Part shown: positions 5,191 through 13,327 of the stretch, piece after piece
How the letters are laid out: every line of letters starts with the position of its first letter
Position numbering within the stretch: the first letter of the stretch is position 1
Assembly: GCF_053078305.1 (NCBI RefSeq)
Contig: NZ_CP166879.1
DNA length: 64,000 nt
Direction: 5' to 3' (one strand)
Made by a program: the position numbers and the translations under genes
The notes under the pieces: model-generated
Databases searched by the model: none
The model's input: the letters and a program-made list of their open reading frames with translations, nothing else
Told to the model about the DNA's origin: nothing

Positions 5191-6579
5191 ATGGCACTGC
5201 AAAATGAGAAAAATAGTCGTTATCTTTTACGCGACTGGAAACCAGAAAATCCGGCCTTCTGGGAAAATAAAGGAAAACATATTGCTCGAAGAAACCTCTG
5301 GATATCAGTCAGTTGTCTACTTCTTGCCTTCTGTGTCTGGATGCTATTTAGCGCAGTTACCGTTAATCTCAATAAAATCGGTTTTAATTTTACTACCGAT
5401 CAACTCTTTTTATTAACCGCATTACCCTCCGTTTCTGGCGCATTATTGCGTGTTCCCTACTCCTTTATGGTACCTATATTCGGTGGACGCCGATGGACGG
5501 TTTTTAGTACTGCAATCCTGATTATTCCTTGCGTCTGGCTCGGAATTGCCGTGCAGAATCCGAATACTCCTTTTGGGATCTTTATCGTTATCGCTTTGCT
5601 ATGCGGTTTTGCAGGTGCGAACTTTGCTTCGAGCATGGGCAATATCAGTTTCTTCTTTCCAAAAGCCAGGCAAGGGAGCGCTCTTGGGATTAATGGCGGA
5701 TTAGGAAACTTAGGTGTAAGTGTGATGCAGCTGGTTGCACCGCTGGTCATTTTTGTACCCGTATTCGCCTTTCTCGGCGTCAATGGCGTCCCGCAGGCCG
5801 ACGGTTCGGTGATGTCGCTGGCGAATGCCGCATGGATTTGGGTACCGCTACTGGCGATTGCCACGATCGCCGCCTGGTCAGGGATGAATGATATCGCCAG
5901 TTCACGCGCGTCAATTACCGACCAGCTCCCTGTCTTACAACGCCTGCATCTCTGGCTGCTGAGCCTGCTTTACCTTGCCACCTTCGGTTCGTTTATCGGT
6001 TTTTCTGCGGGTTTTGCCATGCTGGCAAAAACCCAGTTCCCGGATGTGAATATTCTGCGCCTGGCGTTCTTTGGCCCATTTATCGGTGCCATCGCGCGGT
6101 CGGTTGGTGGTGCTATTTCCGATAAATTCGGCGGCGTGCGGGTGACGTTGATCAACTTTATTTTTATGGCGATTTTCAGCGCCCTGCTGTTCCTTACCTT
6201 ACCGGGCACAGGCTCCGGTAATTTCATCGCCTTTTACGCCGTATTTATGGGGCTGTTTCTGACCGCGGGTCTGGGAAGTGGTTCTACTTTCCAGATGATC
6301 GCCGTCATCTTTCGCCAGATAACCATTTATCGGGTGAAGATGAAAGGCGGTAGTGATGAGCAAGCTCAGAGAGAAGCCGTCACCGAAACGGCGGCGGCTC
6401 TGGGCTTTATCTCAGCCATTGGCGCAGTGGGCGGCTTTTTTATTCCGCAGGCGTTTGGCATGTCGCTCAATATGACCGGCTCTCCAGTGGGCGCGATGAA
6501 AGTGTTTTTAATCTTCTACATCGTTTGTGTGCTACTGACCTGGCTGGTTTATGGTCGGCGGAAGTTCAGCCAAAAATAA
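5191..6579 (+). CDS. narU: Nitrate/nitrite transporter NarU (MFS, NarK family)
   Basis: Protein beginning MALQNEKNSRYLLRDWKPENPAFW, 462 aa, GAGGAA RBS; sits upstream of narZYWV. Confidence 0.9.
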   Translation: MALQNEKNSRYLLRDWKPENPAFWENKGKHIARRNLWISVSCLLLAFCVWMLFSAVTVNLNKIGFNFTTDQLFLLTALPSVSGALLRVPYSFMVPIFGGRRWTVFSTAILIIPCVWLGIAVQNPNTPFGIFIVIALLCGFAGANFASSMGNISFFFPKARQGSALGINGGLGNLGVSVMQLVAPLVIFVPVFAFLGVNGVPQADGSVMSLANAAWIWVPLLAIATIAAWSGMNDIASSRASITDQLPVLQRLHLWLLSLLYLATFGSFIGFSAGFAMLAKTQFPDVNILRLAFFGPFIGAIARSVGGAISDKFGGVRVTLINFIFMAIFSALLFLTLPGTGSGNFIAFYAVFMGLFLTAGLGSGSTFQMIAVIFRQITIYRVKMKGGSDEQAQREAVTETAAALGFISAIGAVGGFFIPQAFGMSLNMTGSPVGAMKVFLIFYIVCVLLTWLVYGRRKFSQK

Positions 6580-6584
6580 GAGAT

Positions 6585-6650
6585 CGATGCCTGACACGTC
6601 TTATCAGGCTACAACCGTGTCGCATCCGACAAGGCATCAGATCCCAATTC
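6585..6650. repeat. REP-like palindromic element between narU and narZ
   Basis: gatgcctgacacgtcttatcaggctac ... gcatccgacaaggcatc resembles REP consensus arms. Confidence 0.4.
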
Positions 6651-6673
6651 ATTCCTGGAGCAGGAGTTATGTC

Positions 6674-10414: not shown

Positions 10415-11955
10415 AAATACGTTCGCAAGTCGGCATGGTGCTTAACCTCGATAAATGTATCGGCTGCCATACCTGTTCGGTGACCTGTAAAAACGTCTGG
10501 ACCGGACGCGAAGGTATGGAGTACGCATGGTTTAACAACGTCGAAACCAAACCGGGCATTGGTTATCCGAAAAACTGGGAAGATCAGGAAGAGTGGCAAG
10601 GCGGCTGGGTCCGCGATGTGAATGGCAAGATACGCCCGCGTCTGGGCAGCAAGATGGGTGTAATAACCAAAATCTTCGCCAACCCGGTGGTGCCGCAGAT
10701 TGATGATTACTACGAACCTTTCACCTTCGACTACGAACATTTGCATAGCGCACCGGAAGGCAAACATATCCCTACTGCTCGCCCGCGTTCGCTGATTGAC
10801 GGTAAGCGGATGGACAAAGTGATCTGGGGGCCAAACTGGGAAGAACTGCTGGGCGGCGAGTTTGAAAAACGTGCCCGCGACCGCAACTTCGAGGCCATGC
10901 AAAAGGAGATGTACGGGCAGTTTGAAAACACCTTCATGATGTACCTGCCGCGCCTGTGCGAACACTGCCTCAATCCCAGCTGCGTGGCGACCTGCCCAAG
11001 CGGCGCTATCTACAAACGCGAAGAAGACGGTATTGTGCTGATTGATCAGGATAAATGCCGTGGCTGGCGTTTGTGCATTAGCGGTTGTCCGTACAAAAAA
11101 ATCTACTTCAACTGGAAAAGCGGCAAGTCAGAAAAATGCATCTTCTGTTATCCGCGAATTGAGTCAGGCCAACCAACCGTATGCTCAGAAACCTGCGTGG
11201 GTCGAATCCGATATCTGGGCGTGCTGCTTTACGACGCTGACCGCATCGAGGAAGCGGCGAGCACCGAGCGCGAAGTTGACCTCTATGAACGCCAGTGCGA
11301 AGTGTTCCTCGATCCACACGATCCCTCAGTGATCGAGGAAGCCCTGAAACAAGGTATTCCACAAAATGTGATTGACGCTGCCCAGCGTTCGCCTGTCTAC
11401 AAAATGGCGATGGACTGGAAACTGGCGCTACCGTTGCACCCTGAATACCGCACCCTGCCGATGGTCTGGTACGTTCCTCCGCTGTCACCGATTCAGTCTT
11501 ACGCTGATGCGGGCGGTTTGCCGAAAAGCGAAGGCGTGCTCCCCGCCATCGAAAGCCTGCGTATTCCGGTGCAATATCTCGCCAATATGTTGAGTGCCGG
11601 TGATACCGGTCCGGTACTGCGGGCGCTGAAACGGATGATGGCGATGCGCCACTATATGCGTTCACAAACCGTGGAAGGCGTTACTGATACTCGTGCCATC
11701 GACGAAGTTGGCCTGAGCGTCGCCCAGGTCGAAGAAATGTATCGCTATCTCGCCATTGCCAACTATGAAGATCGTTTTGTTATCCCGACCAGCCATCGGG
11801 AAATGGCGGGCGATGCCTTCGCAGAACGCAACGGCTGCGGTTTTACCTTTGGCGACGGTTGCCACGGTTCGGACAGTAAATTCAACCTGTTCAACAGTAG
11901 CCGTATCGATGCCATCAACATCACCGAAGTGCGCGACAAAGCGGAGGGCGAATAA
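10411..11955 (+). CDS. narY: Nitrate reductase 2 beta subunit NarY (4 FeS clusters)
   Basis: 514 aa, cysteine-cluster motifs (CIGCHTCSVTCK, CEHCLNPSCVATCPSGA); start overlaps the narZ stop (ATGA). Confidence 0.93.
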   Translation: MKIRSQVGMVLNLDKCIGCHTCSVTCKNVWTGREGMEYAWFNNVETKPGIGYPKNWEDQEEWQGGWVRDVNGKIRPRLGSKMGVITKIFANPVVPQIDDYYEPFTFDYEHLHSAPEGKHIPTARPRSLIDGKRMDKVIWGPNWEELLGGEFEKRARDRNFEAMQKEMYGQFENTFMMYLPRLCEHCLNPSCVATCPSGAIYKREEDGIVLIDQDKCRGWRLCISGCPYKKIYFNWKSGKSEKCIFCYPRIESGQPTVCSETCVGRIRYLGVLLYDADRIEEAASTEREVDLYERQCEVFLDPHDPSVIEEALKQGIPQNVIDAAQRSPVYKMAMDWKLALPLHPEYRTLPMVWYVPPLSPIQSYADAGGLPKSEGVLPAIESLRIPVQYLANMLSAGDTGPVLRALKRMMAMRHYMRSQTVEGVTDTRAIDEVGLSVAQVEEMYRYLAIANYEDRFVIPTSHREMAGDAFAERNGCGFTFGDGCHGSDSKFNLFNSSRIDAINITEVRDKAEGE

Positions 11956-12650
11956 TGCAGATCCTCAAAGTGATCGGCCTGTTGATGGAGTATCCGGACG
12001 AGCTGTTGTGGGAATGCAAGGAGGACGCGCTGGCGTTGATCCGCCGCGACGCGCCGATGCTTACGGATTTCACCCACAACCTGCTTAACGCGCCGCTGCT
12101 GGATAAACAGGCCGAATGGTGCGAAGTGTTTGACCGCGGGCGCACCACGTCGCTGCTGCTGTTCGAACATGTTCATGCCGAGTCCCGCGATCGCGGCCAG
12201 GCAATGGTGGACCTGCTGGCGGAGTATGAAAAGGTCGGCCTGCAGCTGGATTGTCGGGAACTGCCCGATTATCTACCGCTGTATCTGGAGTATTTAAGCG
12301 TACTGCCTGACGATCAGGCGAAAGAAGGATTGCTCAATGTTGCGCCGATCCTCGCCCTGCTTGGCGGACGCTTAAAACAACGCGAGGCACCCTGGTCTTC
12401 GTTGTTTGACGCCCTGCTGCAACTGGCAGGAAGCTCCCTTTCAAGTGACAGTGTCACAAAACAGATTCGCAGTGAGGAGCGTGATGAGCCCCCCCAGGCG
12501 CTGGATGCGGTGTGGGAAGAGGAACAGGTGAAGTTTATTGAAGATAACGCCACGGCGTGTGACAGCTCGCCGCTTAATCAATATCAGCGACGCTTTAGCC
12601 AGGATGTCGCGCCGCAATATGTCGACATCAGTGCGGGAGGTGGGAAATGA
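11955..12650 (+). CDS. narW: Nitrate reductase 2 assembly chaperone NarW
   Basis: 231 aa NarJ-family protein; start overlaps the narY stop. Confidence 0.9.
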
Positions 12651-13327
12651 TTCAGTATCTGAACGTCTTTTTTTACGATATCTACCCGTACATTTGTGCG
12701 ACGGTGTTTTTCCTCGGCAGCTGGCTGCGCTACGACTATGGCCAGTACACCTGGCGCGCCTCCTCAAGTCAAATGCTCGATAAACGCGGGATGGTGATAT
12801 GGTCGAATCTGTTCCATATCGGCATTTTGGGGATCTTCTTCGGGCACCTGTTCGGCATGTTAACGCCGCACTGGATGTACGCGTGGTTTTTGCCAGTGGC
12901 AGCGAAACAACTAATGGCGATGGTGCTCGGCGGTATTTGCGGTGTGTTGACGTTGATTGGCGGCGCAGGACTGCTGTGGCGCAGGCTGACAAATCAGCGC
13001 GTGCGTGCCACTTCCACTACGCCGGATATCATCATCATGAGCATTTTGCTGGTCCAGTGTCTGTTGGGGCTAAGCACCATACCGTTTTCAGCACAGTATC
13101 CTGATGGTAGCGAAATGTTGAAGCTGGTGGGTTGGGCGCAAAGCATTGTCACTTTCCGTGGTGGATCGTCAGAGATGCTTAACGGTGTAGCGTTCGTCTT
13201 CCGCCTGCATCTGGTGTTGGGAATGACCATCTTCCTGCTCTTCCCGTTCACTAGACTGGTGCATGTGTGGAGCGCCCCGTTTGAGTACTTTACTCGTCGG
13301 TATCAGATTGTGCGCTCGCGGCGATAA
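12647..13327 (+). CDS. narV: Nitrate reductase 2 gamma subunit NarV (membrane cytochrome b)
   Basis: 226 aa multi-TM protein; start overlaps the narW stop. Confidence 0.9.

Follow-up and report, generated by a model that had tools for sequence, protein, structure and literature searches.

In Escherichia coli, expression of nitrate reductase Z (NRZ) depends on RpoS and growth phase rather than on induction by nitrate or Fnr. NarZYWV has been described as a second membrane-bound respiratory reductase, constitutively expressed and outside Fnr/NarL control. Its regulation differs from that of nitrate reductase A (NRA) (PMC7005491). The narUZYWV genes have been treated as one operon, and transcripts of the five genes all increase upon a point mutation upstream of narU (PMC11417348). 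The latter paper also cites, by title, a Salmonella study of rpoS-dependent narZYWV.

Here, we describe the narUZYWV cluster in a 64,000 nucleotide (nt) stretch of contig NZ_CP166879.1 (RefSeq assembly GCF_053078305.1). We refer to the whole stretch as the window. An initial annotation had placed the cluster at positions 5191 to 13327. It had also described the five genes as intact and the cluster as an ordinary core feature. The two limits coincide exactly with the start codon of narU and the stop codon of narV.

Identity and integrity of the narUZYWV cluster

Genes were read from a six-frame list of open reading frames (ORFs) covering positions 3500-15500. Starts were trimmed to the RefSeq/K-12 start codons. 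The reference was the region 1533000-1548000 of E. coli K-12 MG1655, compared gene by gene. The five genes lie head-to-tail on the + strand, and both the ORF list and direct comparison gave zero internal stops. In pairwise alignments with K-12 narUZYWV the genes are colinear, free of frameshifts, and each equal in length to its counterpart among b1469-b1465. The description of the genes as intact is therefore borne out. The flanks are also those of the K-12 NRZ locus, with yddG upstream and yddE, nhoA, yddH and pptA downstream.

Overall, identity to K-12 is 97.0-98.3% for nucleotides and 97.0-99.8% for amino acids (aa), with 19 aa substitutions in total (Table 1). Chance cannot account for intact ORFs of this size (226 to 1246 codons) at 97-98% nucleotide identity to K-12. 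Ratios of nonsynonymous to synonymous substitution rates (dN/dS), calculated against K-12 by the Nei-Gojobori method, are 0.062 for narU, 0.016 for narZ, 0.008 for narY, 0.178 for narW and 0.041 for narV. Values in this range, 0.008-0.18, indicate strong purifying selection, which is the pattern of functional genes. Several antisense ORFs overlie the cluster (among them 10390-10965, 6566-7126, 11108-11665 and 12441-12992). We treated them as by-products of coding sequence rich in guanine and cytosine (GC), and RefSeq annotates none of them in the closest strains.

All five proteins scored above the cut-off of an NCBIfam model (Table 1). Pfam matches were consistent with these assignments: Nitr_red_alph_N, Molybdopterin and Molydop_binding in NarZ, and Nitrate_red_del in NarW. 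Cofactor ligands were located by alignment to the NRA subunits. In NarZ, the ligands of the FS0 [4Fe-4S] cluster (H50, C54, C58 and C93; H-x3-C-x3-C...C) align to K-12 NarG. The same is true of D223, the ligand of molybdenum-bis(molybdopterin guanine dinucleotide) (Mo-bisMGD). In NarY, 15 cysteines (16, 19, 22, 26, 183, 186, 191, 195, 216, 222, 226, 243, 246, 258 and 262) are in register with NarH and correspond to clusters FS1-FS4. NarV residues H57, H67, H188 and H206 align to H56, H66, H187 and H205 of NarI, the ligands of its two b haems. A NarJ-type delta chaperone gene, narW, sits between the beta and gamma genes. Hence, the predicted alpha, beta and gamma subunits, and the chaperone, all have the characteristics of a NarGHI-type respiratory membrane-bound nitrate reductase (DMSO reductase family type II).

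These assignments point to a simple model. NarZ (with Mo-bisMGD and FS0), NarY (with four Fe-S clusters) and NarV (the di-haem b anchor) would together form NRZ, a quinol:nitrate oxidoreductase. NarW would act as the NarJ-type assembly chaperone of this enzyme. NarU, a member of the major facilitator superfamily (MFS), would transport nitrate/nitrite. We conclude that the locus is almost certainly the orthologous, functional narUZYWV of E. coli, predicted to encode the second membrane-bound nitrate reductase and its transporter.

The cluster is widespread. Megablast located the 8137-nt region in 5408 of 5426 complete E. coli genomes. Coverage reaches 80% or more in 5390 of these, over 99% of the total, in agreement with its description as an ordinary core feature. 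Most E. coli matches are 95-99% identical. Identity is at least 99% in 22 records, the best being A16 and ETEC6335, both at 99.8%.

Two observations qualify this reading. The first concerns NarW codons 178-180 (approximately 12486-12494). Here, the window reads GAGCCC where A16, D8, K-12, E. albertii and Klebsiella aerogenes have GA(C/T)ACC. The resulting double change, D178E/T179P, is private to the window; the NarW proteins of both A16 and D8 have D178/T179. The change creates a C7 homopolymer at ~12488-12494, keeps the frame, and falls in a DDT(R/P)QALDA patch otherwise conserved in Escherichia and Klebsiella. NarW E178/P179 could reflect either a variant private to this genome or a base-calling error related to the homopolymer. 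The second is a scan of positions 4700-14800 for consensus sigma-70 promoters and terminators, which returned counts at or below shuffled expectation, a result that says nothing on the narU promoter. We found no sequence evidence that speaks against the cluster being the functional narUZYWV locus.

Table 1. Coordinates of the narUZYWV cluster and adjoining features in the window, with NCBIfam matches and comparison to E. coli K-12
Feature	Position	Strand	Description	NCBIfam model	Score (bits)	Cut-off	Nucleotide identity to K-12	Amino acid differences from K-12
narU upstream (promoter/leader) region	4872-5190	+	Between espR1 and narU					
narU	5191-6579	+	462 aa, ATG to TAA; nitrate/nitrite MFS transporter	NF011608 (NarU-specific)	1019.9	836	98.27%	4 (K160R, A243T, H393Q, K394R); 99.1% aa identity
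narU-narZ spacer	6580-6673	+	REP-like hairpin and narZ Shine-Dalgarno site					
narZ	6674-10414	+	1246 aa, ATG to TGA; NRZ alpha subunit, catalytic, Mo-bisMGD	TIGR01580	2334	1084	97.62%	5 (T411K, G435A, V463A, N466S, S702G); 99.6% aa identity
narY	10411-11955	+	514 aa; beta subunit, four Fe-S clusters	TIGR01660	981	524	97.80%	1 (N80S)
narW	11955-12650	+	231 aa; NarJ-type private chaperone	NF011628	498.6	410	96.98%	7, grouped at residues 148-149 and 171-180
narV	12647-13327	+	226 aa; gamma subunit, di-haem b, quinol-oxidising membrane anchor	TIGR00351	423.9	105.6	97.65%	2 (I136V, M158L)
Terminator-like hairpin	13345-13382	both	Common to narV (+) and the convergent DUF4303 gene (-)					
DUF4303+HEAT gene	13392-14582	-	Convergent to narV; 396 aa from the RefSeq start, longest ORF 403 aa from TTG					

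Gene junctions and transcription units

The narZ/narY, narY/narW and narW/narV junctions had been reported to overlap by 1-4 nt, which was taken as the usual translational coupling. We measured overlaps of 4, 1 and 4 nt, respectively. Briefly, narZ and narY share ATGA at 10411-10414 (...CAGGAGGCGAAAAAATGA...), narY and narW meet in TAATG at 11953-11957 (...GCGGAGGGCGAATAATG...), and narW and narV share ATGA at 12647-12650 (...GCGGGAGGTGGGAAATGA...). A GGAGG/GGGAGG Shine-Dalgarno site occurs 6-9 nt before the narY, narW and narV start codons, inside the preceding gene. E. albertii and K. aerogenes show the same strings (ATGA, TAATG and ATGA) and the same GGAGG layout, with locus DNA only ~88% and ~79% identical to the window, respectively. 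Hence, the overlap architecture and its conservation stand as described, and the coupling itself we infer from sequence.

We envisage that narZYWV would be read as one unit. Since each start codon overlaps the preceding stop codon, and the GGAGG site lies inside the upstream gene, terminating ribosomes could re-initiate at the overlapping start. Re-initiation of this kind would help to keep production of the three subunits (catalytic, Fe-S and anchor) linked to that of the chaperone.

Alternatively, overlaps of 1-4 nt could represent compact packing without coupling, with translation of each gene starting at its own Shine-Dalgarno site, independently of the others. The strong GGAGG that each downstream gene possesses would be enough for this. 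However, Escherichia and Klebsiella retain identical overlap strings at ~21% DNA divergence. Furthermore, the paralogous narGHJI genes of NRA have stop/start overlaps of the same kind (4, 4 and 1 nt), although the 1-nt overlap comes last there, and not second as in NRZ. This fits selection on the junction, without proving it. We consider packing without coupling rather unlikely. Coupling and independent initiation are, in any case, not mutually exclusive.

Unlike the other three junctions, narU and narZ do not overlap. The spacer between them is 94 nt long; that of K-12 has 81 nt, and the additional 13 nt fall inside a palindrome resembling a repetitive extragenic palindromic (REP) element. 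When folded, the spacer forms an outer stem, GAUGCCU/AGGCAUC, at -27.2 kcal/mol. The corresponding z of -1.8 is not significant, and no T-run follows. Using a 51-nt probe spanning it, we detected the long spacer form in 1865 of 5426 complete E. coli genomes, which makes it a common polymorphism.

A stem-loop in a spacer of this type, polymorphic by a 13-nt indel, is what might be seen if narU and narZYWV were separate transcription units, with the REP-like hairpin as a terminator or processing site. Yet the hairpin has neither a T-run nor a significant fold energy, and no sigma-70-like sites were called in the narU-narZ spacer. Moreover, the five transcripts rise jointly after mutation upstream of narU (PMC11417348). 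Separate units seem to us quite unlikely. Partial attenuation, or an additional internal promoter at the spacer, is possible. We favour co-transcription, in line with the literature, whereby narU, 94 nt upstream of narZ, would be transcribed together with it from a promoter upstream of narU.

The region upstream of narU is nearly identical to that of K-12. The differences are scattered point changes and 1 nt in a T-run. A GAGGA motif occurs 6 nt before the narU ATG. Because the upstream region is almost identical, regulation of narUZYWV in the window is expected to be the same as in K-12. An Rfam scan of positions 4500-15000, at E up to 1, for small RNAs or leaders (such as a NarS-like RNA from the 3' untranslated region after narU) gave no match.

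The DUF4303 gene next to narV

In K-12 and A16, narV is followed by a ~40-nt hairpin (GGCCGGA...TCCGGCC in K-12) and then yddE. In the window, 1352 nt (13330-14681) replace the K-12-type hairpin and carry an additional gene, convergent to narV. The GC content of the gene is low, at 43.6%, compared to 52-55% in the flanks. Residues 26-165 of the encoded protein match the Pfam family DUF4303 (E = 1.5e-8). Searches of NCBIfam and PADLOC with this gene returned no match. An identity for the 403-aa minus-strand ORF as an insertion sequence (IS) transposase was ruled out, the sole Pfam match being DUF4303.

The hairpin that separates the two convergent genes has a 12-bp perfect stem (GCCUGUUUUUCU/AGAAAAACAGGC). 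On the + strand, the fold has an energy of -20.8 kcal/mol (z -3.4) and is followed by UUUUC. On the - strand, the energy is -19.9 kcal/mol (z -2.6) and GGUUUUG follows. The hairpin, conserved also in E. albertii, is probably the terminator of narV and the DUF4303 gene alike.

The DUF4303 gene is rare in E. coli, and its retention just beyond the cluster is the one unusual feature of this region. It occurs in 4 of 5426 complete genomes: ET350 and D8, at 100% identity, and 2017-02-2CC and LR-28, at 94%. The same position and orientation are found in E. albertii (84% aa identity) and K. aerogenes (52% aa identity, between narV and nhoA). Window positions 7393-17570 are collinear with E. albertii straight across the DUF4303 gene. 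The spacers flanking the gene, hairpin included, are common to both. In a comparison of the window with 2017-02-2CC, the gene has a synonymous divergence (dS) of 0.16, against 0.24-0.28 for its flanks. Hence, gene and flanks have diverged about alike. The dN/dS of the gene is 0.185.

These data indicate that the DUF4303 gene is not a recent insertion. The simplest reading is that narV had this gene beside it in an enterobacterial ancestor, and that most E. coli deleted it early while a few lineages retained it. Its retention would mark the ancestral layout of the narV-yddE junction. Separately, the narW, narV and yddE genes of 2017-02-2CC are 93-95% identical to window positions 11955-15612. 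Such divergence, with a dS of 0.24-0.28, is unusual among core genes of E. coli and points to a deep or introgressed lineage at the narV locus of that strain.

The protein family to which the DUF4303 gene belongs is small, with 44 matches, all of ~400 aa and mostly from Actinobacteria. We inspected four genomic contexts of homologues (Leucobacter, Rhodococcus, Streptomyces and a metagenome contig). No nar genes were found near these homologues, which are surrounded by unrelated housekeeping genes. On the metagenome contig, the neighbours, aconitase B and pyruvate dehydrogenase, look enterobacterial. An AlphaFold2 model, built with 27 homologues, is confident, with a mean predicted local distance difference test (pLDDT) score of 93. 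In this model, an alpha/beta domain at the N-terminus is followed by a helical repeat at the C-terminus. A Foldseek search of the PDB with this model returned only generic ARM/HEAT matches, with E > 1e-3.

A 2026 preprint lists DUF4303 among predicted immunity domains of Rhs toxins (10.64898/2026.07.13.738213). Because of this, we regard an orphan immunity-like role as a lead, not a finding. A functional tie to NRZ, for instance as an accessory or regulatory partner, would make the gene more than a syntenic passenger or orphan immunity-like gene. The hairpin in common with narV, synteny over two genera, and purifying selection on the gene would all suit such a tie. Conversely, the homologues inspected in Actinobacteria and on the metagenome contig have no nar genes nearby, and NRZ is present in the absence of the DUF4303 gene in 5422 of 5426 complete E. 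coli genomes. We consider a functional tie very doubtful.

Comparison with known nitrate reductase loci

NRA (narK-narGHJI) has the same five-gene architecture, Pfam/NCBIfam families and cofactor ligands as the window cluster. The gap between narK and narG holds the annotated NarS small RNA and a nitrate/Fnr-regulated promoter. Amino acid identities of the window proteins to these paralogues are 74.6% (NarK), 78.8% (NarG), 77.7% (NarH), 55.5% (NarJ) and 70.8% (NarI). That the cluster is in fact the NRA locus, or that it combines parts of both paralogous loci as a hybrid, might be entertained from the identical gene order and domain families, and from the RefSeq labels 'narH' and 'narI' for the beta and gamma genes here, but it is ruled out, with practically no likelihood left, by identity (55-79% aa to NarK/GHJI against 97-99.8% to NarU/ZYWV, even along each gene) and by synteny (flanks yddG/espR1 and yddE/nhoA rather than narXL/ychS; a narU-narZ gap of 94 nt rather than a narK-narG gap of 515 nt).

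Upstream of narU, the window contains an intact OmpC-like porin gene (~1023-2123) and an intact espR1 (~3615-4871), as do A16 and D8. The latter gene encodes a leucine-rich repeat protein of the type III secretion system effector type. Both names follow RefSeq, as annotated in the 99.6%-identical strains D8 and A16. In K-12, only the yddL, yddK and yddJ remnants are present at this position. Downstream of pptA, a segment with an ISAs1/ydcC-type (H-repeat) transposase occurs twice in the window, at 17614-18593 and 24385-25376. The corresponding neighbourhood in D8 is annotated as an RHS element region, and collinearity of the window with D8 ends at ~17615.

Among individual strains, E. coli A16 (NZ_CP028758.1) is 99.8% identical over the 8137 nt, and its NarU, NarZ and NarY proteins are identical to those of the window. 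It differs in having M158, rather than L158, in NarV, and in lacking the DUF4303 segment. E. coli D8 (NZ_CP195962.1) is 99.6% identical over the 8137 nt and, unlike A16, has the DUF4303 gene (100% identity).

The window cluster is already known, not novel. Our analysis confirms a standard, intact second respiratory nitrate reductase and transporter in this genome, which is of use for annotation and no more. In gene order, strand, lengths, start and stop codons, the three overlaps and flanking core genes, the cluster is the same as b1469-b1465 of K-12.

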